This document shows positions 3,247 to 44,690 of a stretch of DNA of 64,000 bases, piece by piece; positions within the stretch are counted from its first letter, which is position 1, and the number at the start of each line of letters is the position of its first letter. The position numbers and the translations under genes are program-made. The notes beneath the pieces are model-generated. The model saw only the letters and a list, made by a program, of their open reading frames with translations. It made no database searches and had not been told where the DNA came from. Source of the stretch: Candidatus Nomurabacteria bacterium (lineage in GTDB: Bacteria; Patescibacteriota; Patescibacteriia; HK-STAS-PATE-3); the NCBI GenBank assembly GCA_023898465.1, contig CP060223.1, positions 256,001-320,000 on the forward strand. The letters run 5' to 3'.

Positions 3247-4016
3247 GTCAATTGAAGCAGCCAAATGAAATAAAGAAAATGGCTGCGTCTGGTCGTCAGC
3301 TGGCTGAGATATTAGACGAAGTCAAAAAGCATGTGCGGGTTGGGATAAGCACAGGCGAGCTTGATCGGATTGCCGCAAAACTGATGCAAGATGCCGGCGT
3401 GAAGCCAGCCTTCTTGGGATATCGCGGTTACCCCGGCGTATTGTGTACCTCACGCAATGAACAGGTGGTGCATGGAATTCCTTCAAACGATGAAATATTA
3501 CAGAACGGTGACTTACTGAGTATCGATATCGGCATAGTGAAAGAAGGTTGGTATGCTGACATGGCTGAAACGGTCGCAGTTGGGAACATAAGCTATGCGG
3601 CAGAGCGTTTAATGAGTACCACTCGCGAAGCGCTGCAACGTGGTATTGCCGCTTTAAAAATCGGTGAGCCATTAGGCAGGGTTGGTGCTGCGGTACAGAG
3701 CTTTAGCGAATCGCGTGGTTACGGAGTTGTGCGAGATCTTTGCGGACACGGCATTGGCCGAGCTATGCACGAGGATCCCATGGTGCCGAACTACGGTAGT
3801 GCGGAGAGTGGTCCTATTGTGCAGCCGGGTCTAGTTATTGCGATTGAGCCAATGATCACGGCAGGAAAATGGCAGGTAAAAACTTTAGCCGATGGATGGA
3901 CAGTGGTCACTGCCGATGGAGGCTTAAGCGCCCATTTTGAAAAAACAGTAGCGGTGACCGAACACGGTGTGGAGATATTAACCGGACTCAGCCATGGCAA
4001 GAATTCTCGCGCTTGA
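3243..4016 (+). CDS. map: Methionine aminopeptidase type I
   Basis: 257 aa. Metal-ligand context is present (DIGIVKEGWYADMA, GHGIGRAMHEDP, IEPMI). The start is an ATGA overlap with the adk stop. Confidence 0.9.
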   Translation: MSQLKQPNEIKKMAASGRQLAEILDEVKKHVRVGISTGELDRIAAKLMQDAGVKPAFLGYRGYPGVLCTSRNEQVVHGIPSNDEILQNGDLLSIDIGIVKEGWYADMAETVAVGNISYAAERLMSTTREALQRGIAALKIGEPLGRVGAAVQSFSESRGYGVVRDLCGHGIGRAMHEDPMVPNYGSAESGPIVQPGLVIAIEPMITAGKWQVKTLADGWTVVTADGGLSAHFEKTVAVTEHGVEILTGLSHGKNSRA

Positions 4017-4398
4017 TCTAGGTAAACAAAAGACCGGTCTTGCTTTATCAGACCCTGATCAGCGCTGGGCCTTTGGACGTGGTATCGTCAAGGGCAGTAT
4101 TGAAGATGTAGTAAAGGCGATTACTGACATTCGGACTACTGATGAGATTGAGCGCGTGGTAATTGGCTTACCGCTTTCTCTGCAAGGTACGGGTATAGGG
4201 GAGCAAGAGCAGTGGGTCCGCGAACAGGCTGAAAAGATTCGCCAAGGTGTGCAATTGCCCGTAGAGTTTATGGAAGAACGTTTTAGCAGCGAGATGGGGA
4301 GGCGTTTGCAGCAAGAGGCGGGCAAAAAAGGGGACGATGATGAGGCGGCAGCGAAAATTATTTTGCAGTCTTATTTAGATCAGCGTTTTCGCACATGA
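3994..4398 (+). CDS. ruvX: YqgF/RuvX-like putative pre-16S rRNA nuclease / Holliday junction resolvase
   Basis: 134 aa. The N-terminal ILALDLGKQKTGLALSD and later VIGLPLSLQG match the YqgF family pattern. Confidence 0.8.
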   Translation: MARILALDLGKQKTGLALSDPDQRWAFGRGIVKGSIEDVVKAITDIRTTDEIERVVIGLPLSLQGTGIGEQEQWVREQAEKIRQGVQLPVEFMEERFSSEMGRRLQQEAGKKGDDDEAAAKIILQSYLDQRFRT

Positions 4399-5495
4399 GT
4401 TTTTGGCTTGTCAACGGTATTTTTTTCCTAAGCAGTTTTGTGCTGGCTGCCTTGAGCACGCCGCTTTTTCGCCGGATCGCATATCGATTTCATTTACTTG
4501 ACACCCCGGCCAGCGCACCAGAACGAAAACTGCAGACTCAGCCAATTCCTTTACTTGGAGGTTGGGCGATTTTCTTTTCCTTTACCATGGTTATTCTTTT
4601 GGGTGCGTGGCTCGGCTGGTTTCAGGATGGAGTCATAAGCGCAAAAGCCTTGTATGGTGTGCTCCTCGGTGGTGGACTCATTATGGTTGGCGGTACAATA
4701 GATGATAAGTGGGGAGTAGGCCCGGCTAAGCAACTTATTTGGTCCTTCCTCGCTTGTGCTATTGTTGTGGTTTCAGGAATTGGCATCAGCTTCATTACCA
4801 ATCCATTTGGGGGTGAGTTACGCTTAGACACGCTTTCCTGGTCCGTGTTCACCATGAATGATATTTCTTATCAATTTGTGGTGTGGGCTGATCTGCTCAC
4901 TTTAGCTTGGCTCATGGGCATGATGTATACGACCAAGCTGCTTGATGGTTTAGATGGACTAGTGTCCGGAGTTGGTGCAATTGCCAGCCTTATTCTTTTT
5001 GGCGTCACCCAACTGCAAGATGTGCAGCAAGCGACCACGGGATATATTGCGCTCGCGCTGGCCGGGGCTTGTCTGGGTTTCCTTATATATAATTTTTCGC
5101 CAGCGAAGATATATTTGGGACAAGGTGGAAGTTTGCTTATCGGATTTTTCTTAGGTGTGCTTTCCATCGTGAGTGGAGGAAAAATTGCTACCGCACTTCT
5201 GGTGATGGGGATTCCGATACTGGATGTGGCGTGGGTGATTCTTCGTCGAGTGATTATCGAAAAGCGTTCGCCGCTCTCGGCAGATCGTAAGCATTTGCAT
5301 TTTCGTTTACTCGATGTTGGCTTTAGTCATCGCGGCGCCGTTCTTTTTCTCTATCTGCTCACAGCATTATTCGGTAGTGCGACATTATTCTTCCGAGGAG
5401 TGGCCAAGCTATACGCGCTCGGAGCGCTTCTCTTGGTTATGTGTGCCTTGGGTATCTGGCTCGTACGTCGATATCAAGGTTTCAATAAATCGTAG
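4395..5495 (+). CDS. Glycosyltransferase family 4 polyprenyl-phosphate HexNAc-1-phosphate transferase (WecA/MraY superfamily)
   Basis: 366-aa protein with about 10 TM helices. It has the DDKWG loop, TTKLLDGLDGL, and NFSPAKIYLGQGGSLLIG, characteristic of the MraY/WecA family. Confidence 0.75.
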   Translation: MSFWLVNGIFFLSSFVLAALSTPLFRRIAYRFHLLDTPASAPERKLQTQPIPLLGGWAIFFSFTMVILLGAWLGWFQDGVISAKALYGVLLGGGLIMVGGTIDDKWGVGPAKQLIWSFLACAIVVVSGIGISFITNPFGGELRLDTLSWSVFTMNDISYQFVVWADLLTLAWLMGMMYTTKLLDGLDGLVSGVGAIASLILFGVTQLQDVQQATTGYIALALAGACLGFLIYNFSPAKIYLGQGGSLLIGFFLGVLSIVSGGKIATALLVMGIPILDVAWVILRRVIIEKRSPLSADRKHLHFRLLDVGFSHRGAVLFLYLLTALFGSATLFFRGVAKLYALGALLLVMCALGIWLVRRYQGFNKS

Positions 5496-9523: not shown

Positions 9524-9598
9524 GGGTCCATAGCTCAATGGTAGAGCAACTGCCTTTTAAGCAGTGGGTTGGTGGTTCGAGCCCACCTGGACCCACCA
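9524..9598 (+). tRNA. tRNA-Lys (anticodon UUU), CCA encoded
   Basis: Cloverleaf read by eye. Acceptor GGGTCCA/TGGACCC, anticodon stem ACTGC/GCAGT with loop CTTTTAA, T-arm GGTGG-TTCGAGC-CCACC, discriminator A plus CCA. Confidence 0.9.
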
Positions 9599-9662
9599 GT
9601 CATATCGCGCTTTTTGCATACCCAAGAAGCGAGACCCAGCATAGCGTGGGTCTCGTGTGAGT

Positions 9663-10079
9663 TCAGACGCCTTTGCGGGCGTGGGGATTGTGGCGATAGA
9701 TCGCCATTCCCGGCTTTGCGGTACTGGGAACCTCGATCAGGATATCTCCGCTAGCACCGAAGACGTTTCGCGTCGTTGCCCCGAGGTCAACACGCAGGGT
9801 TGTCAGAGGCGCTGCTCCGAGCGGATCCCCGAGACAAATAATGTCTCGATCATGCAGCGTCACTCCTTGTTTGAGGCTGGCCGTATGCGTTCGTTGGAAC
9901 TGCACACTGCCGAGTACGCCAATCTTGATCCAGTCGGTCTGCGTAGCCGCTTGCGTCGACATAGTACCCCCATTCTTCCAGTGAAAGGCACGCACGGATC
10001 TCATCCTGAGAATGTGCAAATCTTGCCACGGAGTGTAGCGCTGTGGATTTTCTTTGTCAAGCAAAACGGACACACTCAA
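9663..10079 (-). CDS. Hypothetical protein (GC-rich island)
   Basis: The 138-aa ORF starts at a TTG. An internal ATG at 9962 (MSTQAATQTDWIKIG...) has a G-rich Shine-Dalgarno-like sequence and may be the real start. A 9-bp hairpin at 9631-9657 lies downstream. I recognised no family. Confidence 0.4.
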   Translation of the reverse strand: MSVSVLLDKENPQRYTPWQDLHILRMRSVRAFHWKNGGTMSTQAATQTDWIKIGVLGSVQFQRTHTASLKQGVTLHDRDIICLGDPLGAAPLTTLRVDLGATTRNVFGASGDILIEVPSTAKPGMAIYRHNPHARKGV

Positions 10080-10100
10080 GTGAGGTGTCCGTAGTTGGGG

Positions 10101-10898
10101 TTAGTTGACGGAGGCGATCTCTTCATCAGGGATTGCGGCTATCAAGCGTCCGAGCGCCTTTTGCAGCGAAAGATTAGAGCGGGCTAAGCGTTCATCATAT
10201 CGGAAGAAGTGAAAGGGGATAGCAGAGGGGTCGGTCAACGCCATTTGTCCAAGCGCTCCAAGCTGCTGGAATACTGCCCCAAGATCGAGTTCGAGGTCGA
10301 ACAGGAGCTCCCAATCAATGCAAGATCGAAGCGCTTCCCAGGGTAGTGGCTCTTCCATGCAGCATGAGCGCCCGGCCAGCATTCTGACAAAGTGGCAGAG
10401 CCCAGGGTTGAAGAAGCTTTTTCTCCTTTGATCAGTCAGCAAGGTGCTTCTTGGGTCAAAGGGGTACACGGTGTCGTCCTCTCCCTGCATGAGCCATCCC
10501 TTGAGCAGCTCAAGATCAACCACGCTGGTGACCAAATCTTGGGTGGCGAGGGCCTTGCGATCAAAGCTCACGATGTCGCCCCAGGGGATCGGCAGACAGA
10601 TTGAGGCAACAAGTTCCACCCAAGCACCTAGTGTGTCTTGGCGATCCTCTGGGACAACCAAGAGAAAAGAATCAAGAGTTCTGGGAAGTGCCATAGCACC
10701 AAGGGCGGAGAGAAAGTTCCCGGCTTTTTTTCCTACAGCGTCGATGATGAGGCTTCGTATAGGCTCACCATCAGTATCTTCCAAGATGCTTTGAGAATCC
10801 TCAAGACTTGAGCAGACGGTGATGGTGTGGCAGTTGATCCGAGCTGCCAAATGGCGGGCTCGTTTCTGACTACCAGAAAAAACCAAGAGGTGTGCCAT
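10101..10898 (-). CDS. Hypothetical protein with receiver-like (CheY-fold-like) N-terminus
   Basis: 265 aa. The N-terminal pattern LLVFSG...ITVCSS...SLIIDAVG resembles the beta1/beta2/beta3 pattern of REC domains. The C-terminal 150 aa are unrecognised. Divergent from the CHAP lipoprotein gene. Confidence 0.5.
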   Translation of the reverse strand: MAHLLVFSGSQKRARHLAARINCHTITVCSSLEDSQSILEDTDGEPIRSLIIDAVGKKAGNFLSALGAMALPRTLDSFLLVVPEDRQDTLGAWVELVASICLPIPWGDIVSFDRKALATQDLVTSVVDLELLKGWLMQGEDDTVYPFDPRSTLLTDQRRKSFFNPGLCHFVRMLAGRSCCMEEPLPWEALRSCIDWELLFDLELDLGAVFQQLGALGQMALTDPSAIPFHFFRYDERLARSNLSLQKALGRLIAAIPDEEIASVN

Positions 10899-10972
10899 AC
10901 TCAGACCTCCGTTGAGTTATGAAGGTGCTTCCTCCTATAGAGAAGTGTAGACGCATTGCGCATCTTCGACAA

Positions 10973-11391
10973 TACTTGACAACCCACTTCACAGGAGTAC
11001 ACTAAATGCACAATTGGTGGCGATCTCTGCCTGGCACTGACCAGGTTGTCCGGAGACGCCATGTTTTTGTATGCGCGTGTTCTTCCTCCTTGCCGCAGGG
11101 TGTAGCTCGGCTCCGCTCGCTACCCATTTCTCGGCATCGGTCTCTTTGCGATGATCGAAACGAAGAGCGTCTTTTTCTACTCTCCTGCAGGGGCGGTGCG
11201 GGAGCGCGGAATAGTTCCGGGCTTCATTTCCTCACATGAGGAAAGCGGCTTTGTTGCCGTTTTGCACCTTGAAATGCATGGAGGTTCGCCATGACTTGGC
11301 GTTTCCGACTCTTCCTGCTCATGGCCATCGCGTTGACCATGACACCCCTCGCTTTCATGACCGGCTGCCAGGAGCTGCCGACGGAGGGGGA
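10973..11391 (+). repeat. Copy A of a duplicated promoter + leader + lipoprotein signal-peptide module
   Basis: Near-identical to 14570..14894, except for a block of about 94 nt present only in copy A and a few substitutions. It ends 33 codons into the downstream CDS. Confidence 0.9.
10976..11003 (+). promoter_or_regulatory. Sigma70-like promoter (TTGACA-N16-TACACT) of module copy A
   Basis: Consensus -35 hexamer and a near-consensus -10, conserved base for base in copy B (14573..14600). Confidence 0.5.
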
Positions 11392-12028
11392 TTCACAGGA
11401 TCAAGTGGTTGAGAGTCCGGAAGCTCAACCCGGTCCAGCGATTCAGTCTACTGGGCCCGAATGGTATAATCAGGTCGTAAGTGAAGCAAAGTACACATTG
11501 TGCCAGCTTCGAAACGGCACATCGCATGAGGTCTATCAGGGTAAGGCTATGGGTGATTGGCCCTACCCACATCAAGGGGATTGTTGTAACGCCCTTGGTG
11601 TAGTCCGTCAATATATGTACGGTGGTGGCTCTCCAGGACCGCTTGGCGAATGGAATGGCTTCCAGCAAGGCGGTTGGTGCAAGTTCTTTGTCAACTTGGT
11701 GCTCTACCGCTCTAGCTATGGCTACCCGGGCGGACATTTGCTCTTGCCCACTTCTACGTATCGTTACAATAATCCACGCCCGGTTTCCGAAGCACAACCT
11801 GGATGGATCTTGCAGTCAGAAACACTACCTCATACTGCGATCGTAGTAGAACGACTAGGCGGTGGCTTGGATGTAATCGATTCAAACTGGATCGGAACTT
11901 ACAAGCGTCCGGACGGAAGTTATTACTACTCATATGCCATCGCAAGGCATGAAATCACAAATACGGAGTTGGATCGCTACGATTTCATGGCATATCGTCC
12001 GCATGAGGCGTGCGTGCTGCATAACTAG
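11291..12028 (+). CDS. Lipoprotein, CHAP / NlpC-P60 superfamily peptidoglycan amidase/peptidase
   Basis: Signal peptide with lipobox (LAFMTGC). Candidate catalytic Cys in GGWCKFFVNLV and His in LPHTAIVVE...DVIDSNW, the CHAP-like Cys/His/polar arrangement. Shine-Dalgarno GGAGG lies 7 nt upstream. Confidence 0.75.
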   Translation: MTWRFRLFLLMAIALTMTPLAFMTGCQELPTEGDSQDQVVESPEAQPGPAIQSTGPEWYNQVVSEAKYTLCQLRNGTSHEVYQGKAMGDWPYPHQGDCCNALGVVRQYMYGGGSPGPLGEWNGFQQGGWCKFFVNLVLYRSSYGYPGGHLLLPTSTYRYNNPRPVSEAQPGWILQSETLPHTAIVVERLGGGLDVIDSNWIGTYKRPDGSYYYSYAIARHEITNTELDRYDFMAYRPHEACVLHN

Positions 12029-12101
12029 ATAGTGGGGGGTGCTGGAAAGTTTTTCAGTTCCCCCCACCTCCCACAAAGTCAATTATTTACTTCATAAGTA
12101 T

Positions 12102-12617
12102 ATGAAAAAAATCCAAATAGTCTTTCTCTTATTTTCAAGCATTGTTCTTGCGTCGGTGATTTTTTATTCCGGACATGCTATTTCATATAAAAATACAACC
12201 TACGGATATTCTTTTAGTACAATAAAAAAGTCTAATATTAAAGTTCTTGATCCAGCGCTTGTTCAAGTTTCAATTATAGGAGAAGAGGTTATTGAGGAGA
12301 GTCCAATAATAAACATATATGCTATTAAGTTGGAGCAAGATTCTTTGTCTGCAACCCAAGAACTTGAAACGTGGGTAGGGGAAGATCTTAATGGTTTCTC
12401 TGATATTAATATTCAGAGTACAACGACCGAAACAGAAAAAATAATTAACGTTACTTATACGGGAGGGGGGATGTCTGGAAGTATTAAATACGTCGGATTT
12501 TATGTTTTCAATCAGGAAGAAAAAACAATAATTAAGGTAGTAGCTTCTCAGTATAATGATAATATGGAATTGTTTGAGGCCTACAAAAAAATTCTTTCTT
12601 CCTTTCAGTTAATATAA
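12102..12617 (+). CDS. Hypothetical membrane-anchored/exported protein (AT-rich)
   Basis: The ORF track starts at the GTG at 12039. The ATG at 12102 gives MKKIQIVFLLFSSIVLASVIFYSG, a signal anchor. No family recognised. Confidence 0.55.
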   Translation: MKKIQIVFLLFSSIVLASVIFYSGHAISYKNTTYGYSFSTIKKSNIKVLDPALVQVSIIGEEVIEESPIINIYAIKLEQDSLSATQELETWVGEDLNGFSDINIQSTTTETEKIINVTYTGGGMSGSIKYVGFYVFNQEEKTIIKVVASQYNDNMELFEAYKKILSSFQLI

Positions 12618-13255
12618 TGACCACCACTCATCGTCTCCTCATATTACTCATTGTCGTAGTTGCCGCAGGCTTTCTCTATCTTGGATTAAGATCAGATTCC
12701 TCCGATGTAACAACGACGAACAAAACAGTCAACAAAGATTTCCGTGAACTTGAAATGCTCAGTTCAGCTGGTCACAAGGTGTTTCAATCAGAGAATTATG
12801 ATTTCACCTATACGATTGATCATGGTGTTGACTGGAGCGTTAGCGAGGCTGCAGAGCCGACTTTGCTCACCACTTGGTTTTCTTTACCAAATCCAAATAG
12901 TGAAGAGGAAGAAAGAGATGATATTCCGAATGGGTTTAATACCTTTGAAAAAAATAGTTTTCGACTTGATGTATATCCTAACTCAGGTTCAGTAAGTCCA
13001 AATGGAGAAGCGGAGCTAAAAGATTGGTTAAAAAATGATCTTAATAGTGAGTATATTCCTGGAAGCTTTTTAACCTTATCCATTGCAAGAAACCGTTTAT
13101 TCAAAGTAGTTGATTTTCAGGGGATTGATGTGCGAGAGGCGCATTATTATCTATTTGGCTCTGCATTTGTATATGTCTTTTCAAGCGGTGATTTCACTGA
13201 GCAAGAAATGCGCGAGTTTATTAGCGGTTTTACCTACGAAAGAGCGCCTTTATAA
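12617..13255 (+). CDS. Hypothetical membrane-anchored/exported protein (AT-rich)
   Basis: 212 aa with an N-terminal TM helix (LLILLIVVVAAGFLYLGL). The start is a TAATG overlap with the upstream gene. Confidence 0.55.
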   Translation: MTTTHRLLILLIVVVAAGFLYLGLRSDSSDVTTTNKTVNKDFRELEMLSSAGHKVFQSENYDFTYTIDHGVDWSVSEAAEPTLLTTWFSLPNPNSEEEERDDIPNGFNTFEKNSFRLDVYPNSGSVSPNGEAELKDWLKNDLNSEYIPGSFLTLSIARNRLFKVVDFQGIDVREAHYYLFGSAFVYVFSSGDFTEQEMREFISGFTYERAPL

Positions 13256-13462
13256 GCGCTTCATCTCATCTTTATTTCTTTACTTGACGCATCTCAGTAG
13301 TCCGAGCATAATCATTTTTGGGTAGTAACCCACGTTTTGATAAGCAGGAGAAGTACGGTAGATTCGATGGATGCGCCATGCGCACCCCATCTGCGTTGGA
13401 TTGTCACACTGAACCTCGGGTCAGGATAGCACCCTGACAAATCTGGAAAGAAAGGAGGCGTC

Positions 13463-14470
13463 ATGAACCGCCTGTTTGTCGTACTCGCGCTGATCACCAT
13501 CGGGGCTCTGGGTTTTGTTGGCTGCGGCGGTAAGGACGCCGCTACGAAGCCGGAAGAAATCCGCAGTCCAGATCAGATCGTGCAGTCTGAGATTGTCTAT
13601 ACCGTGAACCCAGACTACTCAGGGGTGAATGTTTCGTGGAAAACAAACATCCCGACAGTTGGAAGGGTGTACTATGGTAGGACTCCTCAACCAACTGACT
13701 ACGTCATCGAGGAGGTGAGCACTACTCAACATTTGTTGTGTGCACCTCGACTCAGGGGAGATGCGCTCTTCTACTTCCAAGTGCAATCATCCTTTTCCGA
13801 GGAAGTGATTAGCGCTCGGGAACCGAGCGAAGGCGATACACTTCGCACCCCACGATGGGTTGATTGGTCTCCACCTACCGTAAGATGGGTCGATCCTCGA
13901 GAAGGCGCAATAAAGGGCGGGACGATTGATCTCACTGTTTCGGCAAACGAATACGTTGTCAACGGGGTGGTAGAGGTGAAATTCTTTATCGATGGCAGGG
14001 TCATCGCTGTAGTGACTGAACCCGATGACGGTGATAAGATCTTCGTCGTGCATGACTTCAATACTACCCAGCTCACCGATGGCTTGCATAGCTTTCACGC
14101 GTTGGCAACAGATGTAAACGGTAACAGAGAGTCAAGGGGAATTACGGTCGACATCGACAACTCGAAGCCGGTCATCTATCGATGGGATGCTCCGAGAAAT
14201 CAGCGGGAGATCGGGAATTCTATCAATTTGCGAGTGGTGGCTCAGGACTTTCGTGGTGAACACGTCGATGATGTGTACATCACCCTCGATGGTCAACCAT
14301 TTGCGAGGCTTGAGGTGTGTGAACTGCGAGCTAGCGGCGTAGGAGATGTGTGGTGTAGAGACGTTGATACGTCGACGCTGTCACCCGGTCAGCACTACTT
14401 CGGTGCCGTTTCAGTAGATCATGCTGGCAACGAGTCAGATCCGGTCTACATCGGCGTCATCAAGCAGTAG
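13463..14470 (+). CDS. Lipoprotein with two tandem Ig-like (bacterial Ig / Big-like) domains
   Basis: Signal peptide with lipobox (LGFVGCGG). Two similar modules of about 90 aa (IDLTVSAN..VKFFIDG..TDGLHSFHALATDVNGN and INLRVVAQ..VYITLDG..SPGQHYFGAVSVDHAGN). Shine-Dalgarno AAGGAGG. Confidence 0.6.
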   Translation: MNRLFVVLALITIGALGFVGCGGKDAATKPEEIRSPDQIVQSEIVYTVNPDYSGVNVSWKTNIPTVGRVYYGRTPQPTDYVIEEVSTTQHLLCAPRLRGDALFYFQVQSSFSEEVISAREPSEGDTLRTPRWVDWSPPTVRWVDPREGAIKGGTIDLTVSANEYVVNGVVEVKFFIDGRVIAVVTEPDDGDKIFVVHDFNTTQLTDGLHSFHALATDVNGNRESRGITVDIDNSKPVIYRWDAPRNQREIGNSINLRVVAQDFRGEHVDDVYITLDGQPFARLEVCELRASGVGDVWCRDVDTSTLSPGQHYFGAVSVDHAGNESDPVYIGVIKQ

Positions 14471-14569
14471 CCTTTCCAGTCCGTCAGGAATCCAACAGAG
14501 CCTGGGATCATCGATCTCGGGCTCTTCTCTTTTTGATACGCTCCAGAATGAAAAAGTGAAGTTTACTAT

Positions 14570-14894
14570 TACTTGACAACCCACTTCACAGGAGTACACT
14601 AAATGCACAATTGGTGGCGATCTCTGCCTGGCACTGACCAGGATGTCTGGAGACGCCATGTTTTTGTATAGGCGTATTCCACCCTCCCTTGCCGTGGCGT
14701 TGGGGAGCGCGGAATAGTTCCGGGCTTCATTTCCTCACATGAGGAAAGCGGCTTTGTTGCCGTTTTGCACTTTGAAATGCATGGAGGTTCGCCATGACTT
14801 GGCGTTTCCGACTCTTCCTGCTCATGGCCATCGCGTTGACCATGACACCCCTCGCTTTCATGACCGGCTGTCAGGAGCTGCCGACGGAGGGGGA
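14570..14894 (+). repeat. Copy B of the duplicated promoter + leader + lipoprotein signal-peptide module
   Basis: See copy A. The two copies are offset by 3597 nt at the 5' end. The first 33 codons (MTWRFRLFLLMAIALTMTPLAFMTGCQELPTEG) are identical at protein level. Confidence 0.9.
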
Positions 14895-15492
14895 GACTTC
14901 GGTGATCTCTGATGAGTTGCCGGATGCTTCACCCTCAGCTCAGTCAAGCCCGATGACTTGGCCCTCTTCGATCCAGGATTTCAAACTCCCTTATGATGGG
15001 ATCCGGGATGCATGCGGGGGTCAGATTTGGAAGGTTGTTTGCGGGTACGGATGTGGTTATCATCACAACACAAACTACATGGCCGCCGCGTACCATTCGA
15101 TTGATCTTGTACGGCAGGATGCGCCGACCACTCATAGCGCAGTACTCGCTCCGGCGCGTGGCATCGTTTCGTTTGTCGGATGGAGGAATGGGTACGGTTG
15201 GTGCGTGGAGATGGATCATCGAAACGGCTGGAAGTCGCTTGTGGCCCATCTCGAAACGGATCCTTGGGAATTCGTCCATACCTATGACGACCTGCGGCAG
15301 GGGACTTTCCTGGGCTATGCAGGGAACAGCGGAGCGAGTACGACACCCCACATTCACTTCTCGGTGTGGCGGAACAACGTCACTCATACGCTCGATGGCG
15401 TATCGTTGATCAACCCGCGTCTAAATGGGCGATACAATTCCGGCAATGATTATGTTGCGCCACCGACGGGAAATCCGAACCCGATTCCTTAA
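14794..15492 (+). CDS. Lipoprotein, M23 (LytM/lysostaphin-type) metallopeptidase
   Basis: The N-terminal 33 aa are the same as in the CHAP protein. GNSGASTTPHIHFSV matches the M23 HxH motif. An upstream YHSIDL stands where HxxxD is expected, with spacing one residue short. Confidence 0.8.
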   Translation: MTWRFRLFLLMAIALTMTPLAFMTGCQELPTEGETSVISDELPDASPSAQSSPMTWPSSIQDFKLPYDGIRDACGGQIWKVVCGYGCGYHHNTNYMAAAYHSIDLVRQDAPTTHSAVLAPARGIVSFVGWRNGYGWCVEMDHRNGWKSLVAHLETDPWEFVHTYDDLRQGTFLGYAGNSGASTTPHIHFSVWRNNVTHTLDGVSLINPRLNGRYNSGNDYVAPPTGNPNPIP

Positions 15493-15668: not shown

Positions 15669-16682
15669 ATGAATCGTTTTTCTATCTTCATCGCAGTGTT
15701 CGTTCTTATCAGCGCAGTGGTTTATGCTTTCTTTTTTGCTACATTATTTGGGGAAAAGAAAGCTATTGAAGGAGTGCAGGGACCTGCTTTTATGTTTGCA
15801 ACCCTGCCTGACTCAGATGCATCTGCCGCGATAAGCATTTTTGAGATTCCTACAATGTCGAAGCGAAAGGCTGAAGACACATCTTTGCCAATGCATTTTC
15901 TTAAAAAACTAGGAGATCCGAGAGAGTATTTTGATCCCATACTTTCTTCAAGTGGTGCATATTTGGCTTTTAATCGTAATATTGGGGAGCCGAAACAGGA
16001 TAAGACAAATTTAGTAATACTTGCAGCTGACGGAAAAGAAAGGAGCGTGGAGAGCGGCTCTGCTGGAGATATAGGAATAGGAATGCTCACGCCCTTGCAG
16101 TGGAGTGCTGATGAAAAAACGCTCTACGCTTTTTATACACACGCAACTGAAGGTAATATCGTAGGCCTGGTGGCAATTGATGTGGCAACTTTAAGCCAAC
16201 AACGAATTGAAAAAATTGATGATCTACGTGTAAGTAACTACGTCTTTGATGAAGTCGGAAATACCTACGGTTTTGAACCGCACTATCGATTCCGCCCTGA
16301 AGACGAGGCTCAAACAACCTTTTATCGAATTTCTTTGACTAGTGGCGAAACAAAAAGCTTTACACTCCAGCAATCGAGTTTGGACGATCTCTTGACCGTA
16401 GATCCAAGCGGGAGATACCTCGTGTACGCAAACGGAGATGATTTTAATTCTCGTAACATTTGGATGTATGACATGGAAACCGGTGAGGAGCGCGCGTTGA
16501 CTGAAAATGCTGTTGTTAATGAAATTTTGCCCTGGAAAGATGGATATTTGGTATTTCTGGAGGAAAGTGTAAACACCCCCGCAGAAAAAACACTTGTATC
16601 ATACGATGTAAATTCTGGCATTCGCAAAGTTCTTTTAGAAAATGTTACAGGGACGTTCCGGCTTCTTGGTTGGTATCCCTAA
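15669..16682 (+). CDS. Membrane-anchored beta-propeller-like protein (TolB/PD40-like repeats)
   Basis: 337 aa with an N-terminal TM helix. Repeated D-P-S-G-x-Y-L-(V/A)-(Y/F) type segments (LSSSGAYLAFN, DPSGRYLVYANGD...IWMYDMETGEERALT) resemble WD40-like/PD40 blades. Confidence 0.5.
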   Translation: MNRFSIFIAVFVLISAVVYAFFFATLFGEKKAIEGVQGPAFMFATLPDSDASAAISIFEIPTMSKRKAEDTSLPMHFLKKLGDPREYFDPILSSSGAYLAFNRNIGEPKQDKTNLVILAADGKERSVESGSAGDIGIGMLTPLQWSADEKTLYAFYTHATEGNIVGLVAIDVATLSQQRIEKIDDLRVSNYVFDEVGNTYGFEPHYRFRPEDEAQTTFYRISLTSGETKSFTLQQSSLDDLLTVDPSGRYLVYANGDDFNSRNIWMYDMETGEERALTENAVVNEILPWKDGYLVFLEESVNTPAEKTLVSYDVNSGIRKVLLENVTGTFRLLGWYP

Positions 16683-16940
16683 TTTCATATATCAGTTGGG
16701 AGGTTTTTATTAAACCTTGCCCCTCCCCTTAAAAAGTGGTATAGTCATTGAGCTATTCTGAATATCTCAATATTCTAGCAACCGCGTGAAAATGTCAGCA
16801 AAAACAGACATCGCGGAGGGGGAAATCACTCAAGAGCAGCACATACTCTTGTATACTCAAGCGTCCCTAGTAAAAAGGGATGTTTTTTGTGTGCAAAGTA
16901 GCCTCGTAGCTGCCACAAGTTCTGAAAGGAGCGAAGGCGC

Positions 16941-17600
16941 ATGTTAGGTTATCTTTTGCTCATTATATCGGTTGTAGAGTTTTTTATTGGCCTGTACCTT
17001 ATTTTTCGCTATGAAAAAAGCCAGGCAACAACATATTACGGTCTCTTTGCAATAAGTGTTGCGATCTATGTTGCCGCGAACGGTTTCGGATTTACCCGAG
17101 CTTCTGATAACGAGTTTATTTTTGAGCAACTTGCTTGGTTTGGCGGCTTACTTAGCGCCCCATTTATCCTTGGCTTCAGTTATAGCTTTCCTAGCCCTAA
17201 AAAATATCCCACTGAGCTATTTCCGTGGGTAATTTGGCCAGTAGTGTTATTTGGCGCAGGAATTTTTACTTCAAATATTTTCCTGGAGAAAACGTATATT
17301 TATTCCTTTGCCGAAGGCTACACTGCGCCAATCGGTGTCTTTTTCTGGTTCGCCATTGCAGTATTTGCGATGTATTGGATATGGGCAATACGAAACCTGC
17401 TGTATACGAGATTGCACACAAGCGGTTTTTATAGGAATTTTCTTACCATTGTGCTCATAGGGCTTTTTTCATCACTGCTTATTTCAGCAATTTTTGATAT
17501 TTACATTCCCTTAGTTTCAGTCACGCGCTACGGATATATTGGAGCATTATTCTCGTCTATTTGGCTGTTTACTACCGCGTATTTAATGGTGAGGAAGTAA
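16941..17600 (+). CDS. Stand-alone 7TM module, paralog 1 (histidine-kinase N-terminal 7TM-like)
   Basis: 219 aa with about 7 hydrophobic helices. Aligns by eye with the first 230 aa or so of the kinase at 23014. Ends ...TTAYLMVRK* where the kinase reads ...ISYAIIRHR and continues. Confidence 0.8.
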   Translation: MLGYLLLIISVVEFFIGLYLIFRYEKSQATTYYGLFAISVAIYVAANGFGFTRASDNEFIFEQLAWFGGLLSAPFILGFSYSFPSPKKYPTELFPWVIWPVVLFGAGIFTSNIFLEKTYIYSFAEGYTAPIGVFFWFAIAVFAMYWIWAIRNLLYTRLHTSGFYRNFLTIVLIGLFSSLLISAIFDIYIPLVSVTRYGYIGALFSSIWLFTTAYLMVRK

Positions 17601-17601
17601 G

Positions 17602-18261
17602 ATGATTGGATATATATTACTCATTATCTCAGTTGTTGAAGTAATACTCGGTTTTTATTTGATTTTTCGATATGTAAAAAGTCCAGCAACTATATATTAC
17701 GGCCTATTCGCGCTAAGTGTAGCACTCTATGTAGGTGCAAACGGGTATGGTTTTAGTCCGTTTTCAGAAAATGATATATGGCTGGAAATAATTGCCTGGA
17801 TTGGCGGGACCTTTACCGCTCCTTTTATTCTTGGCTTCAGTTACTCATTCCCTTATCCACGTAAGTCCAATAAGGAAATACTGTCTTTAGTTCTTAGTCC
17901 ACTCGTTTTTTTCTTCGTCGTAATACTTTTTTCTAATACTTTTGTAGATCATAATAGTGTTATCAGCTTTGATGAAGGATTTCAAAGACCTGTCGGGGAG
18001 TTACACTGGTTTGTATTATCAGTATTCTTTTTCTATTGGGTTTGGTCTTTTATTGAACTAGTAAAGAGTCGAAAAAAATCCGACGGCTTTAATAAGAATT
18101 TTCTTCTTATTTTAATTATAGGCTTAGTTTTTTCTTTGTTGGTTTCGGTATTTACTAACATCATTCATCCACTTGTCGATGTTTCAAAGTTAGGTTATAT
18201 GGGCCCCTTAGCCTCTTCAATCTGGCTATTTATTACTGGGTACTTGATATTGAGGAAGTAA
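17602..18261 (+). CDS. Stand-alone 7TM module, paralog 2
   Basis: 219 aa, collinear with paralog 1 (LLIISVVE..YLIFRY.KS.AT.YYGLFA, APFILGFSYSFP, SSIWLF). Starts 1 nt after the upstream stop. Confidence 0.8.
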   Translation: MIGYILLIISVVEVILGFYLIFRYVKSPATIYYGLFALSVALYVGANGYGFSPFSENDIWLEIIAWIGGTFTAPFILGFSYSFPYPRKSNKEILSLVLSPLVFFFVVILFSNTFVDHNSVISFDEGFQRPVGELHWFVLSVFFFYWVWSFIELVKSRKKSDGFNKNFLLILIIGLVFSLLVSVFTNIIHPLVDVSKLGYMGPLASSIWLFITGYLILRK

Positions 18262-18932
18262 TGAACACCTTTCATTTAGTTTTACTTTTTACACTTTTCT
18301 TTATTCACGCGACTCTCGCAATATGGATGTTGCGTAGATATGTGCAGACGCTATCCATTCGTTATTACTCAGGCTTTTTATTTGGACTAGCACTTATTGC
18401 ACTATTAAATGGTTTATTGCTGTTATTTGGCGGTCAGGAGAGTCAAACAGTCCTTCATAAGATCGGCTTTATCTCAGGCACCTTCACTTTTGTGATGTTC
18501 TTTATGTTTAGTAAGTACTTTCCAATTTCTACTGCAAGACCAAACTCCCGCGACATTCTTTTTTGGGTAATTCCGATTACATTTTTTATTCCATTCATAC
18601 TTTTTAATCAGCAGTTTATCCAGTCTGTGATTATAGAAAATGGAATAAGTAAGCCTACATTTGGAGTCTGGTATACACCATTTATGTTAGTTTTGGCCAC
18701 CTTTGTTCTGGGGGCTATCTATAATCTCATACAGAAATATAAAATAACCACTGAACTTGAAATTAGGAAGAACATTAGAGACATTACGGCAGTATTTTTC
18801 GTATCAGGACTCCTTGGCTTTTTGTTGGACGTTGTGTTGCCAAGGTTTAATGTTTATACGGCACATTACTTTGCCATTGAATCTTCACTTTTTGTTGCGC
18901 TAACTACTGCAATTATTATTGCAAAGAAGTAA
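18261..18932 (+). CDS. Stand-alone 7TM module, paralog 3 (divergent)
   Basis: 223 aa with the same helix layout. TAATG overlap with paralog 2. Ends ...AIIIAKK*. Confidence 0.75.
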   Translation: MNTFHLVLLFTLFFIHATLAIWMLRRYVQTLSIRYYSGFLFGLALIALLNGLLLLFGGQESQTVLHKIGFISGTFTFVMFFMFSKYFPISTARPNSRDILFWVIPITFFIPFILFNQQFIQSVIIENGISKPTFGVWYTPFMLVLATFVLGAIYNLIQKYKITTELEIRKNIRDITAVFFVSGLLGFLLDVVLPRFNVYTAHYFAIESSLFVALTTAIIIAKK

Positions 18933-18933
18933 G

Positions 18934-19605
18934 ATGAAAGAGTTTCTCATCATTGCAAATTATCTGGTTGGAATAGGGGAGTTGATGCTCGCTGGATATT
19001 TTTGGAAAACAAACAGCGGCAGCGCAATTCGGAAGGTGATGGTGTTGTTGGCGTTTTCGACTGGTATGTGGGTCATTTTTACCGGAACCTTTACCTACCG
19101 CTGGATTTTGCTTGATTACTTTGATCTCGGCATATCATTTGTATATTTCTTTGGAATTTTGTTCCTTACCGCCTTACTTCATTTAGTAATTCTCTTTCCT
19201 CACAAGATTTTCCCGTTTGATAGGCTACATACAGTTTTGTTGTATATTCCAACACTCATATTAGGTTTTGCCGCTTTTACTCCAGCGATAATTAAAGAAA
19301 ATATCACTCCGTCGAGCGGGTATACCACAAGTTATCCCGGACCAGCACATTGGATGTTTAATAGCTATCTTTTTCTCATGTATGCAATGGTGATAATCCT
19401 ACTCATTGTTAAGATCAAGCGTTTTGATGGATTTAGCAGAGATAACGCAAAAACTTTGCTTTGGGGTATTATTTTAGGCGGCCTACCCATCGTTTTCTTA
19501 GATTTGGTTTTGACAACTTTGGGCATCTACCCAAATGCTGCCGTTGCCAGCCTTTTCACAGTTGTCTGGCTTGGGTTTACTACTTACATAATTGTACGGA
19601 AATGA
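18934..19605 (+). CDS. Stand-alone 7TM module, paralog 4
   Basis: The ATG at 18934 lies 1 nt after the paralog 3 stop (ORF track start is 18919). Ends ...TTYIIVRK*. Confidence 0.75.
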   Translation: MKEFLIIANYLVGIGELMLAGYFWKTNSGSAIRKVMVLLAFSTGMWVIFTGTFTYRWILLDYFDLGISFVYFFGILFLTALLHLVILFPHKIFPFDRLHTVLLYIPTLILGFAAFTPAIIKENITPSSGYTTSYPGPAHWMFNSYLFLMYAMVIILLIVKIKRFDGFSRDNAKTLLWGIILGGLPIVFLDLVLTTLGIYPNAAVASLFTVVWLGFTTYIIVRK

Positions 19606-20288
19606 ACGGAGAAATAGTATTTTTTGATTTAATTTTACTTAGCGTTGTTGGATTATTAGAATTAGCCTTTGGGATTTATTTAATAGTCCGTTATGTGAGG
19701 ACAAGTTCGATAGTATTTTTTGCACTTTTCGTTTTCTTTCTTTCTTTGTGGGTGCTTACAAATGCGGCTGCTTTCGTAATACCAATACATAATGTCTTCT
19801 TTGATATTGATTCAAAGTTGAGTTTTGTTTTTGCAATATTACTTTTTCCAGCGCTATACTTATATGTAATTAATTTTCCCATCCCTACAATATTAATAAA
19901 TTGGCGTTTAATACTTTTTGTGTTTACTGCGCCAATACTTCTTAGTACAATGATTTTAGGGTCGGGAACGGTTGTATTTGGATTTGATAAATTGATAGAG
20001 AATCAGCCAACTATATTTGGAGAAGCTTTTTGGGCCTATTCTTTTTATATGTTGTTCATGTATGCAATTATTTTATTTGAATTAATAAGGCAGATTAATA
20101 AGTCCAAGGGTTCTCACAGATGGTATGCACAAATTTTATTTTTTGCTGTTTTCATTTCTGGCGCAATAGGGCTATTATTTAATCTTGTTCTGCCTTCGAT
20201 GTTCGATATTAGAATTGCTTATTGGATAGCCCCATCTAGTTCAATTATTTGGCTTGCTCTTGTTTGGTGGGCGACGCAGAGGAAATAA
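19602..20288 (+). CDS. Stand-alone 7TM module, paralog 5
   Basis: ATGA overlap with paralog 4. The ORF track start at 19461 runs inside paralog 4. Ends ...SSSIIWLALVWWATQRK*. Confidence 0.75.
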   Translation: MNGEIVFFDLILLSVVGLLELAFGIYLIVRYVRTSSIVFFALFVFFLSLWVLTNAAAFVIPIHNVFFDIDSKLSFVFAILLFPALYLYVINFPIPTILINWRLILFVFTAPILLSTMILGSGTVVFGFDKLIENQPTIFGEAFWAYSFYMLFMYAIILFELIRQINKSKGSHRWYAQILFFAVFISGAIGLLFNLVLPSMFDIRIAYWIAPSSSIIWLALVWWATQRK

Positions 20289-20290
20289 TT

Positions 20291-20959
20291 ATGGATTATG
20301 GTGTATACTTATTATTAGTTATTGCGGGCCTAGAACTTTGGTTGACAATATACATATTTACTCGCTACCAAAGAACAAAAGCTATTTTTTTCTTTGGACT
20401 CTTTACTGCTTGTGTGACTGGATGGGTGCTAACTAATTCTATTCCGCTTCTTTTTTCCTATTCAAGTTGGCAATCTGATTTTTTGCAACGCCTCTCGTTT
20501 TCTTTTGCTGCATTTATTTTTCCTTTTCTTTATTATTATATTCTTTTACATCCATTTCCAAGCATTGATATCAACAAGCGATTCATATTATTCACATCCC
20601 TCCCGGCCTTCTTTGTTTCTATTGCCACTCTCTTTGATAAAAACTTTGTTATAGGATTCTATGATACCTCAGTAAGGGCAACAATATACGGCGACTCTTT
20701 TTGGATGTATGCGGTAGTTATGTTGCTATTTGCAATTCTTATTCCTGTGGAAATAATTTTAAAAAGAAGAAGACTGGATGGATATTATCGCTACCAATTC
20801 AAATTATTATTCAGCGCCTATTTGTTTTCAGCGGCAGTAGGATTACTAATTAATTTAATATTGCCATATTTTTTCGACTTAAAAATTAACTATTGGCTTG
20901 GGCCCGCGTCATCGATTATTTGGGTGAGTATGGTTTGGTGGGTTATTAATAGAAGGTAA
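20291..20959 (+). CDS. Stand-alone 7TM module, paralog 6
   Basis: The ATG lies 2 nt after the paralog 5 stop. Closest to paralog 5 (..ASSIIWVSMVWWVINRR*). Confidence 0.75.
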   Translation: MDYGVYLLLVIAGLELWLTIYIFTRYQRTKAIFFFGLFTACVTGWVLTNSIPLLFSYSSWQSDFLQRLSFSFAAFIFPFLYYYILLHPFPSIDINKRFILFTSLPAFFVSIATLFDKNFVIGFYDTSVRATIYGDSFWMYAVVMLLFAILIPVEIILKRRRLDGYYRYQFKLLFSAYLFSAAVGLLINLILPYFFDLKINYWLGPASSIIWVSMVWWVINRR

Positions 20960-20981
20960 TGTTTAATTGCGATTTTCAAAA

Positions 20982-21641
20982 ATGACAATAGGACATGTAG
21001 TTGAAGAATTTAAAAGTCGGTATATTAAAAGACAACTAGATCATAATTTTATTGTTTTAGAGACTCAAAATAACAACCAACTAAATTTATCATATAGATT
21101 AAGATACGAAGTATATTGTCTAGAATGTAAATATTTAGACGTGAATAATTATCCCAATAGGTCTGAAAAGGATGAGTATGATGATTGTTCAATACATTTC
21201 ATCGCAATAAATAAAAAGACAAAAAATGTTGTTGGCACAATTCGACTTATTAAACGCACTAATAGGAATTTGCCAATAGAGCATGATTTTGGAATTTCTC
21301 TGAATGGATCAATTAGTTCTAAAAAAGTTGTGGAGATTTCTAGACTAGCGGTTGATAAAAAATTTAGGAAGTCGAGTTTAAAGCATCCAAGTATTATGTT
21401 AGGTTTATTAAAAGCATGCTATAGATACGCCGAAGAAAATGGAATTGCAATGTTTGTAGCGGCAATAGATCAAAATGTATATAATATGTTAAAAAAGTTT
21501 CGTTTTTCATTTAATTTATTAGGGGAACCAAAACATTATATGGGTTCAATCTCAGTACCCGTGTTAATTGATATCGAAAAAGAATCGCAGTGGTTAAAAA
21601 TAGTAAATCCTGGACTATGGACATTTCTTTCAAGCAATTAG
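20982..21641 (+). CDS. GNAT-fold N-acyl amino acid / acyl-homoserine-lactone-synthase-like acyltransferase (FeeM / PEP-CTERM-associated acyltransferase-like)
   Basis: LSYRLRYEVYCLECKYLD, IHFIAI...VVGTIRLI, VVEISRLAVDKKFR and MFVAAID follow the pattern I recall for the LuxI-related Acetyltransf_5/N-acyl amino acid synthase family. The ORF track starts at the TTG at 20967; the ATG at 20982 is preferred. Confidence 0.55.
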   Translation: MTIGHVVEEFKSRYIKRQLDHNFIVLETQNNNQLNLSYRLRYEVYCLECKYLDVNNYPNRSEKDEYDDCSIHFIAINKKTKNVVGTIRLIKRTNRNLPIEHDFGISLNGSISSKKVVEISRLAVDKKFRKSSLKHPSIMLGLLKACYRYAEENGIAMFVAAIDQNVYNMLKKFRFSFNLLGEPKHYMGSISVPVLIDIEKESQWLKIVNPGLWTFLSSN

Positions 21642-22276
21642 CTCATAAAATTGTATTATTCTATTTAAGACGGGCTAGCCACAAAAAATACCTAACATTT
21701 AGCTTTAGCGATCTTATTATACTCTGTCCCCCAAACGTGTTCCCGCCTAATTCGTTTACCACTGACCTAATGGCTAAGTGGCTAGTAAACGAAGAGATGG
21801 AAGGTAAACAGGTTTTAGAGATGGGTTGTGGAAGTGGATACATTTCGATTATTGCCGCACGAAAAGGGGCAAAAGTAATTGCAAGCGACATCAGCCCTAT
21901 CGCGGTTGATGCCGCAAAAATCAATACCATAATAAATAAGATAAAAAATGTCGAATGTTATTGCTCGGACTTATTTTCTAACTTAGAAGGAAAGTTTGAT
22001 TTAATTCTCTTCAACGCACCTTTTTTTCATGGAGAACCCACTTCTTTATTAGATAACAATTGGATGAGTAAGGATGGGGAGGTGGTCAGTAAATTTTTTA
22101 AAGACGCAAGAGAATATATTAATCCAATGGGGAAGGTAGTTATTACTAGTTCGACTCTAGTTAATCAAGATGCTCTGAAAATATTAATTAAAGAAAGCGG
22201 ATTTAATATTGAAAACGTGAAAACAAAAAATATTATTATTGAAAAATTTTTCTTGTATGAATGTAGAGCTTTTTAA
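21617..22276 (+). CDS. Class I SAM-dependent methyltransferase (HemK/PrmC-like amino-methyltransferase pattern)
   Basis: Motif I is VLEMGCGSGYISI, the acidic loop is ASDIS, and motif IV is FNAPFF (an NPPY-like variant). The start is ambiguous (GTG at 21590 or ATG at 21617) and overlaps the upstream gene. Confidence 0.7.
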   Translation: MDISFKQLAHKIVLFYLRRASHKKYLTFSFSDLIILCPPNVFPPNSFTTDLMAKWLVNEEMEGKQVLEMGCGSGYISIIAARKGAKVIASDISPIAVDAAKINTIINKIKNVECYCSDLFSNLEGKFDLILFNAPFFHGEPTSLLDNNWMSKDGEVVSKFFKDAREYINPMGKVVITSSTLVNQDALKILIKESGFNIENVKTKNIIIEKFFLYECRAF

Positions 22277-37312: not shown

Positions 37313-37381
37313 TTTGAGCAGGGCCATAATGAAGGGCTTGGCGAATTGCGTAGTTTTTGTTACCCTACGCTGGTATTTCGG

Positions 37382-43194: not shown

Positions 43195-43195
43195 T

Positions 43196-44686: not shown

Positions 44687-44690
44687 ACCT

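Follow-up and report, generated by a model that had tools for sequence, protein, structure and literature searches.

Why should two genes for unrelated cell-wall hydrolases carry the same promoter, the same leader and the same signal peptide? This question is raised by a 64,000-nt stretch of a Candidatus Nomurabacteria bacterium (assembly GCA_023898465.1, contig CP060223.1, positions 256,001 to 320,000), which we call the window. In it, a segment at 10973–11391 (copy A) is repeated at 14570–14894 (copy B), and the two direct repeats, 3.6 kb apart, stand in front of gene A, which encodes a CHAP-like hydrolase, and gene B, which encodes an M23 hydrolase. We compared the window with 27 related loci (L001–L027), taken from GTDB genomes, metagenomes and other assemblies, which encode homologues of one or the other of these two genes. 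Positions are those of the window, on its forward (+) strand, unless a locus or the minus strand is named. Our analysis makes it likely that the repeat is a conserved promoter–leader–signal cassette, which is homogenised by gene conversion and couples the expression and export of the two hydrolases.

We aligned the two copies and searched the window for repeats. The copies are 95–99% identical, in two blocks. Block 1 pairs 10973–11082 with 14570–14679 (110 nt, 95%) and contains five substitutions, at 11046, 11051, 11073, 11074 and 11079. Block 2 pairs 11200–11391 with 14703–14894 (192 nt, 99%) and contains two, of which that at 11268 falls in a hairpin loop and that at 11368 is silent, the lipobox Cys codon being TGC in one copy and TGT in the other. 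In total, the copies differ by seven substitutions and one block of about 94 nt, and the predicted core helices of the leader RNA are undisturbed by all seven. The left border of the repeat lies 3 nt upstream of the −35 hexamer, and the right border lies at codon 33/34, after ...GGAGGGGGA. A transcription start about 7 nt past the −10 hexamer would give a leader of about 281 nt in copy A and one of about 187 nt in copy B. The initial annotation of this DNA had described near-identity from the promoter to codon 33, leaders of 190–285 nt and an extra block of about 94 nt in copy A, and the alignment bears out this description, as does the repeat search for the near-identity.

The block of about 94 nt lies between blocks 1 and 2 and is present in copy A only. 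Its exact ends are ambiguous because similar short strings, CCTTGCCGCAGGG and CTCCTGCAGGGG, occur on both sides. It was considered as a mobile mini-element, which is ruled out by the lack of a second copy in the window or the 27 loci. The duplicated segment is the single long repeat of such kind in the window, where the only other repeat family is a 52-nt stretch common to paralogous membrane-protein genes. When the module was compared with the related loci by blastn, only chance matches of 12–20 nt were returned, and its leader pattern, exact or degenerate, had no match in the JGI metagenomes. A protein-guided metagenome scan gave only five further loci. A search for more copies of the 33-aa N-terminus, as had been proposed with the first description, covered 5.8 billion clustered proteins and found only these two.

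Both open reading frames (ORFs) start MTWRFRLFLLMAIALTMTPLAFMTGCQELPTEG, and they have 33 codons in common, at 11291–11389 in gene A and at 14794–14892 in gene B (ORF list and alignment). This part contains the signal peptide MTWRFRLFLLMAIALTMTPLAFMTG, the lipobox Cys26 (codon 11366–11368) and the first seven mature residues, QELPTEG. By inspection, it has the features expected of a lipoprotein signal peptide (Sec and signal peptidase II, Sec/SPII), namely MTWRFR with two Arg, the h-region LFLLMAIALTMTPLAF and M-T-G-C26. The Met at lipobox position −3 is unusual. [GSAM]-Cys is found at the aligned column in 25 of 29 homologues.

Beyond these codons, the two proteins are unrelated. Gene A (11291–12028; 245 aa, P0001) has no family match in Pfam or NCBIfam. 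Weak matches to CHAP (PF05257) were obtained for 7 of its 29 homologues (best E = 1.7e-4), and its profile matched only the LytN CHAP domain in the PDB (E = 0.09). We detected 36 relatives, none with a precomputed Pfam domain; the named ones and the homologue loci are mostly metagenome-assembled genomes (MAGs) of Patescibacteria. Across the 29 sequences of the family, Cys130, His181, Asp197, Asn199 and His220 are invariant. C130 lies in GGxCKFF, H181 in PHTAIVV and D197/N199 in VIDSNW, which gives the order Cys...His...polar, and a papain-like alpha+beta fold is recognised in the protein. We therefore place the product of gene A in the papain-like NlpC/P60-CHAP superfamily of cysteine hydrolases, in a Patescibacteria-restricted family outside Pfam CHAP, with a predicted peptidoglycan amidase or endopeptidase activity. 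The name first given to it, CHAP-type amidase, thus holds at the level of the superfamily, by the fold and the invariant Cys and His, and does not hold as membership of the Pfam CHAP family.

Gene B (14794–15492; 232 aa, P0035) matches the M23 metallopeptidase family PF01551 with 66.8 bits against a cut-off of 28.7, and M23 chains of the PDB with E = 9e-11. Its HxH motif, H186-I-H188, is invariant and aligns to the HLH of solved M23 enzymes. The N-terminal region of the HxxxD motif lies outside the alignments, and a candidate there, HSID, has a non-canonical spacing and a His that is unconserved in the closest homologues. The earlier assignment of the second gene to M23 was correct. So was the view of the repeat as an expression-and-export cassette in front of unrelated catalytic domains, since promoter, leader, Shine-Dalgarno sequence and lipoprotein signal are all present.

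The same design was then found in other Patescibacteria. In seven further assemblies, direct-repeat searches and pairwise alignments revealed an intra-locus duplication of the leader, which mostly includes the first codons as well. Two of these loci hold a CHAP-like and an M23 gene: in L007 the common part is the leader and MKYFWSIAPPILA(V/I)LTLGLIVLAGCS, and in L003 it is the leader and about 90 codons that encode a signal of non-lipoprotein type and a linker. L006, L010 and L023 each contain two divergent CHAP-like genes with leader and N-terminus in common, and the same part is common to an unassigned 220-aa lipoprotein gene and a CHAP-like gene in L020. For the 244-aa lipoprotein gene, also unassigned, and the CHAP-like gene of L016, the common part is the promoter and 5′ hairpin only. 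Several lipoprotein genes of L014, among them an NlpC/P60 gene, are preceded by repeated pieces of the leader.

Within a genome the modules are 73–95% identical, and between genomes only short motifs can be aligned. Gene B is 50% identical to the M23 protein of L007 over its full length, and gene A is 38% identical to the CHAP-like protein of that locus. These values indicate that the two lineages have the same gene pair, each with a private module. As each assembly has its own module sequence, the arrangement is either ancient or has arisen repeatedly, with only its latest homogenisation being recent. The recent recombination proposed in the initial annotation can thus be kept for this latest step, and is given up as a one-off event, because the design recurs in the seven other assemblies.

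Near-identity within genomes together with divergence between them is the signature of concerted evolution, and this pattern alone points to gene conversion as the simplest homogenising process. In the explanation that we favour, a recurrent Patescibacteria cassette stands before two neighbouring exported cell-wall hydrolase genes, and combines a sigma-70-type promoter and a long structured leader with a ribosome-binding site and a signal of the secretion or lipoprotein type. Repeated non-reciprocal recombination between the direct repeats would keep the copies near-identical and would leave the catalytic parts, of unrelated fold, untouched. Both enzymes would then have one promoter type, one leader RNA and one start region in common, and a single signal peptide would serve the export and lipid anchoring of both. 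Because promoter, leader and signal are common to both, one would expect the two enzymes to be present at the same time and location and to be controlled alike, and we may reasonably infer that genes A and B are co-regulated.

The direction of conversion might be from A to B. The signal in the window, ...LAFMTGCQELP, has 13 of 31 residues identical to that of the CHAP-like protein P0006, ...LMFMQGCSEEKP, and the signals of the closest M23 orthologues are unrelated to it. Since the signal resembles those of the CHAP-like orthologues (FMTGC against FMQGC), copy A could have been the donor, as this likeness weakly suggests.

The closeness of the copies, which are only about 2% apart, might also be explained by a single recent recombination or duplication in this genome, by which one hydrolase gene received the 5′ region of the other, with no deeper conservation and no ongoing process. 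There is no third copy in the window or among the proteins of the genome, and the indel, with microhomology on both sides, has the look of a young rearrangement. We nevertheless regard this as improbable, because the same design, with lineage-specific modules, is present in the seven other assemblies, two of them with a CHAP-like and an M23 gene, and a one-off event would need many independent repeats.

Two irregularities were seen in the related loci. In L010 (Kerfeldbacteria), the second CHAP-like gene (3767–4849) is split into two frames, 3767–4510 and 4544–4849, by either a frameshift or a sequencing error. L004 and L005 (CAZFGG010000016.1 and CAYNGY010000001.1) are labelled as uncultured Gammaproteobacteria, yet they contain a Patescibacteria-type hydrolase gene with the leader, and these bin labels are probably wrong.

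We next consider what the cassette contains. A promoter scan predicted a sigma-70-type promoter at 10976–11003 (promoter A), with a −35 hexamer TTGACA, a 16-nt spacer and a −10 hexamer TACACT, which matches 10 of 12 consensus positions. Promoter B, at 14573–14600, is identical by scan and alignment. The hexamers and their spacing are conserved in the window, L003a/b, L005, L006a/b, L010a/b, L016a/b, L021, L022 and L027, and the sequence of the spacer is not. We searched for the composite TTGAC-N16-18-TAnnnT-N10-14-GTGGC and found two matches in the window, against 0.03 expected, and 12 matches in eight other loci, all on the gene strand and upstream of these genes. The promoter read by eye in the initial annotation is thus recovered by the scan with comparative support from eight other loci. 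It lies at a conserved position upstream of orthologous genes, and its transcription start site is a predicted one. The pair GTTCTTTACAA...AAGGAGGTGA, also considered as a promoter, was ruled out, as its spacing ranges from 7 to more than 40 nt.

The leader opens with a 5′-terminal hairpin, at 11010–11070 in leader A (RNAfold, motif position and helix covariation) and at 14607–14667 in leader B (RNAfold). In leader A, the core helix 11017–11022/11057–11062 is GUGGCG/CGCCAU, the inner helices are 11024–11028/11052–11056 and 11029–11034/11041–11046, and the U-run is at 11064–11068. In leader B, the core helix is 14614–14619/14654–14659 and the U-run is at 14661–14665. An outer ACAA/UUGU pairing (11010–11013/11067–11070) carries the helix to the predicted first transcribed base. 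The ΔG of the hairpin with its flanks is about −27 kcal/mol, and G-UUUUU-GU comes directly after it, which gives the stem and U-tract of an intrinsic terminator. A consensus terminator scan missed it because its stem is long and interrupted. Two of the A/B substitutions fall within the hairpin, one at a helix end and one in an internal loop. In the related genomes, stems of 20–28 bp are followed by U5–7.

GGUGGC forms the 5′ strand of the hairpin. Its distance downstream of the −10 hexamer is 12 nt in the window. A promoter was called in 12 other leaders, and the distance is 10–13 nt in 11 of these and 54 nt in the remaining one, L024. The 3′ strand varies (GCCACC, GCUGCC, GUUGCU, GCCUCC, CGCCAU) and is followed by the U-run. 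By position, the element is defined as a GGUGGC hairpin with a U-run upstream of an exported-protein gene, and this is what the window contains; the version closest to its hairpin is that of L027, GGUGGCGAUCC. Across the family the helix covaries: 81% of cells are paired, whereas sliding the partners leaves 33–50% paired, and changes on both sides are seen in 9 of 16 pairs, figures that lean toward the hairpin because the model-based alignment is fitted to structure. RNAalifold on a MAFFT alignment gave only five pairs, because of misalignment, and a hand-specified helix with model-based realignment was used instead. Of the two resulting models, R1 includes the window, whose high R1 scores therefore arise by construction, and R2 was built without it.

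Some further occurrences of similar hairpins are as follows. A GGUGG(C/U) hairpin with a promoter stands before non-hydrolase genes in L021 (2023–2089, single-stranded DNA-binding protein, SSB), L024 (1119–1175, a 170-aa secreted protein) and L026 (17–70, a 174-aa membrane protein). The top R2 match in the window is at 37300–37366 (13.7 bits, E = 0.28), where an A-rich flank, a hairpin and a U-run precede tRNA-Glu (37382–37456); it is probably an ordinary terminator.

Two roles of the hairpin seem to us about equally likely. It may be a promoter-proximal intrinsic terminator that acts as an attenuator, as suggested by a stable stem directly followed by a U-run in all family members. It may instead be a stem-loop that sequesters the 5′ end and stabilises the mRNA. 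The helix reaches approximately +1, pairing with the purine-rich bases at the start may be all that the U-run does, and there is no upstream RNA to form an antiterminator, all of which would suit a stabiliser.

The rest of leader A consists of a variable middle (11083–11200; alignments and fold), with an anti-Shine-Dalgarno-like CCUCC (11085–11089) and the block of about 94 nt, followed by three small hairpins at 11201–11225, 11227–11244 and 11245–11260. Their counterparts in copy B are at 14704–14728, 14730–14747 and 14748–14763 (all by RNAfold), and not one A/B substitution falls across 11201–11260. A Shine-Dalgarno sequence GGAGG is found at 11280–11284, 6 nt before the AUG of gene A, and at 14783–14787 for gene B. 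Both leaders are more stably folded than shuffled sequences (z = −3.8 and −2.9). Their minimum free energy structures contain CCUCC (11085–11089)/GGAGG and GGUGGCG/CGCCAUG pairings, and occlusion of the ribosome-binding site is therefore possible in the window. In the leaders of other genomes, the conserved blocks are the 5′ hairpin, GCUUUGUGUUGUC, YCUUACAA and AAGGAGGUGAU.

Most of the related hydrolase leaders have a further arrangement: GUUC(U/C)UUACAA, a variable insert of 4–50 nt, sometimes with its own hairpin, and then a perfect Shine-Dalgarno-like AAGGAGGUGAUCC. This orphan AAGGAGGUGAUCC lies 100–200 nt upstream of the real start, and a consistent start codon was not found after it. 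Such elements were located in L001 (3876–3899), L002 (3822–3841), L003 (3434–3456), L004 (1573–1596), L006 (3790–3812), L007 (3861–3890 and 5400–5432), L013 (3586–3613), L018 (114–139), L021 and L022 (4357–4403). The YCUU/AAGG flanks are helix-like, with CUUU/AAAG in L001, L002 and L014 and CCUU/AAGG in L003, L004, L010 and L021. By analogy, GUUC(U/C)UUACAA...AAGGAGGUGAUCC may be a STAB-SD-like element. The orphan AAGGAGGUGAUCC is absent from the two leaders of the window.

Several ORFs in and around the leaders were rejected as coding. The upstream ORF MHNWWRS... begins no later than the predicted transcription start, and its truncation differs between the copies. The minus-strand ORFs 10901–11062 and 14435–14659 have only the repeated part in common. 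In the other genomes, no consistent upstream ORF follows the orphan Shine-Dalgarno-like sequence.

Several results weigh against the explanation by a homogenised, co-regulating cassette. First, R2 gave non-significant scores for the hairpins of the window (A, 11.2 bits, E = 1.5; B, 9.1 bits, E = 5.6), and beyond the hairpin the leader of the window cannot be aligned with the conserved blocks of other leaders. Because R2 misses the window, its membership of the family rests on the composite of promoter and GGUGGC, the position, the likeness to L027 and the gene context. Second, the 5′ element also stands before non-hydrolase genes, such as that for SSB in L021. It is therefore not a hydrolase-specific regulator, and its distribution fits a general leader for expression or stability better than a hydrolase-specific sensor. 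Third, occlusion of the ribosome-binding site, measured as the unpaired probability of positions −14 to +3, was no stronger in 34 leaders than in 36 control genes (p = 0.55), a comparison that rules out Shine-Dalgarno occlusion as a family-wide mechanism. Fourth, the nearest homologues are 54% identical, with no closely related strain among them, and independent recent transfers of a module in each lineage are an alternative to gene conversion.

A bolder view of the leader is that it represents a new cis-acting RNA family, in which the GGUGGC attenuator and the conserved blocks would gate the production of exported hydrolases, and in which these reduced genomes would hold several hydrolase genes together in one RNA-controlled regulon through gene conversion of the entire cassette. 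We put this forward only tentatively, as a less likely view. We are much more doubtful that the leader is a ligand-sensing riboswitch or a similarly specific cis-regulator, like ydaO, with the cassette duplicated to put both genes under one signal. The leaders are long (187–281 nt in the window and up to about 400 nt elsewhere), they fold better than shuffles, several blocks are conserved in other genomes and a terminator-like hairpin is present, all of which speak for this view. However, the search of the window and L001–L013 with Rfam 15 at the gathering score found only tRNAs, rRNA and tmRNA, with no riboswitch including ydaO, and permissive searches (E up to 10) of both window leaders and the L021 leader gave chance-level matches only. 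The hairpin begins at about +1, so that no upstream RNA is available for an antiterminator; most of the conserved blocks are missing from the leader of the window; the element also precedes SSB and other genes; and an aptamer would be expected to be better conserved in sequence between genomes. Thus, a ligand-sensing riboswitch is less likely than an attenuator or a stabiliser.

The promoter, hairpin and U-run could also be a separate small RNA gene of about 55–60 nt, with the hydrolases expressed by read-through or from another promoter and the duplication being two copies of the small RNA. A promoter followed by a hairpin and GUUUUUG within about 60 nt has the anatomy of a short transcription unit, and conservation is higher on the GGUGGC strand than on the strand that pairs with it. 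We hold this to be very unlikely, since the homogenised tract always runs through the whole leader into the coding region, the promoter scan showed no evident second promoter before the genes of the window, and the element is always oriented toward, and adjoins, a protein gene.

Least credible of all is an assembly artefact by mis-joining or duplicated contig ends, which the initial annotation had named as a possible objection and which does not apply here: although the sequence comes from a MAG and the 192-nt stretch exceeds short reads, so that a junction swap would be possible on sequence alone, the copies differ by the seven substitutions and the 94-nt indel, both genes are in frame and full-length compared with homologues that likewise carry an N-terminal signal or lipobox, the repeat is interior to a 1.08-Mb contig, the same architecture is present in independent assemblies from other samples and taxa, and the picture would be unchanged if the two near-identical modules were swapped.

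The homogenised cassette can be compared with several known systems. In the spirochaete Borrelia burgdorferi, lipoprotein genes of the ospE/ospF/elp family have an upstream homology box (UHB), reportedly described by Marconi et al. in 1996 (J Bacteriol 178:5615, cited in PMC6719511). As in the window, a promoter and a lipoprotein leader peptide are common to genes with unrelated mature parts, and this is attributed to recombination. However, the UHB genes are plasmid-borne, encode surface antigens in many copies and serve antigenic diversity as well as shared regulation. They are without a long structured leader or a 5′ hairpin, whereas the window holds a syntenic pair of hydrolases.

In the variable lipoprotein families of Mycoplasma (vlp, vsp and vlhA), a conserved 5′ untranslated region and prolipoprotein signal are likewise found on divergent mature regions in one locus. 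These families are phase-variable antigens, with paralogous mature parts built from repeats. The vlhA genes are mentioned in PMC9386052. The window differs in having two enzymes of different folds and direct repeats only, with no invertible element or phase-variation device.

Concerted evolution by gene conversion is known in bacteria, for example for tufA/tufB and the rRNA operons. In these cases, as in the window, the copies are near-identical within a genome and the orthologues diverge between lineages. However, whole paralogous genes are homogenised in these classical cases, whereas in the window this concerns the regulatory and export module only, and the tract stops where the unrelated proteins begin.

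For the leader, a parallel is the cyclic-di-AMP (ydaO/yuaA) riboswitch, which in Firmicutes and Actinobacteria precedes genes for NlpC/P60 and other cell-wall hydrolases. It is likewise a long structured leader with a terminator-type hairpin before secreted peptidoglycan hydrolases. The window differs from it by having no Rfam match and no pseudo-symmetric aptamer, and by a hairpin at the extreme 5′ end. Leaders that stabilise mRNA in Gram-positive bacteria include the Bacillus subtilis aprE 5′ stem-loop and STAB-SD (PMC11805744, citing Hambraeus 2000/2002 and Agaisse and Lereclus 1996). Like the leader of the window, that of aprE is long and has a stem-loop at its extreme 5′ end. STAB-SD resembles most of the related genomes, and not the window, in that a perfect Shine-Dalgarno-like orphan is placed far upstream of the start codon. 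The hairpin of the window, which may have a stabilising role, is unlike the known stabilisers in the conserved U-run that follows it and that they do not need.

Compared with these systems, it is new that two enzymes of unrelated fold, with a presumed common substrate, are the cargo, and that promoter, structured leader and signal lie in one tract. The host clade, the Patescibacteria, the conservation of the design across lineages and the uncatalogued leader element are new as well. A search of the literature on Patescibacteria found no description of promoters, cis-regulatory RNAs or such a leader element.

The Patescibacteria (Candidate Phyla Radiation) are ultrasmall, mostly uncultured and thought to be host-attached (PMC11665869). 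Control of hydrolases matters here because the cells need such enzymes to divide and perhaps also to make contact with the host. That the wiring is homogenised in several lineages argues for selection on matched timing, dosage and location of the two enzymes. If an RNA-controlled hydrolase regulon does exist, it would take the place of operons or dedicated transcription factors in a compact way. For the Patescibacteria, the locus further provides a promoter architecture that is conserved and an uncatalogued leader element at the 5′ end, and this element could act as a natural expression-and-secretion cassette in the emerging genetic tools for these bacteria.

Other features of the locus are described here. 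The interval between the two copies holds two AT-rich genes (12102–13255; ORFs and composition), whose products, of 171 and 212 aa, are small proteins anchored at the N-terminus. These genes have 37% G+C compared with about 52%, and no Pfam match. Similar small genes follow the hydrolase genes in L007, L010 and L014. The two genes are followed by a gene for a Big_7 Ig-domain lipoprotein (13463–14470; ORF and Pfam). This gene has its own TTGACG-17-CATAAT promoter (13284–13312) and a leader of about 150 nt (within 13284–13462), whose initial hairpin at 13319–13332 is followed by GUUUUG, a design like that of the duplicated leaders but without GGUGGC.

Downstream of gene B, at 15669–19605, a 337-aa anchored propeller-like protein is followed by four tandem membrane proteins of about 220 aa of the HisKA_7TM type. 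The order of hydrolase, small proteins, propeller protein and HisKA_7TM-type array is kept in L006, L010, L019, L021, L026 and L027, and a phmmer search found the propeller orthologue in L026 with E = 1e-94. This synteny indicates that the cassette is part of a conserved cell-envelope locus. No match among the ORFs of the related loci was obtained by phmmer for the small intervening proteins, the Big_7 protein or the upstream 265-aa protein. The four membrane proteins (16941–19605) are paralogues, with a HisKA_7TM-type domain without a kinase domain, and end ...YI(V/I)(x)RK. In L025, a full histidine kinase with a HisKA_7TM-type N-terminal domain is found beside the hydrolase.

The window is a mosaic in G+C content, with 31–42% at 12000–13000, 17000–24000 and 40000–45000 and about 48–53% elsewhere. 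The AT-rich small genes lie directly between the GC-rich hydrolase genes, and a like contrast is seen in L007 (small gene at 4797–5354). Upstream of copy A, and divergent from it, a 265-aa gene without a family match occupies 10101–10898 on the minus strand. The approximately 500 nt between this gene and tRNA-Lys (9524–9598), at 9600–10100, contain overlapping ORFs on both strands with no family or Rfam match, and may be non-coding or an unrecognised gene. Upstream of the leader, a response-regulator receiver gene is found in L005, and a GAF histidine kinase with a response regulator in L022, which hints at two-component control nearby.

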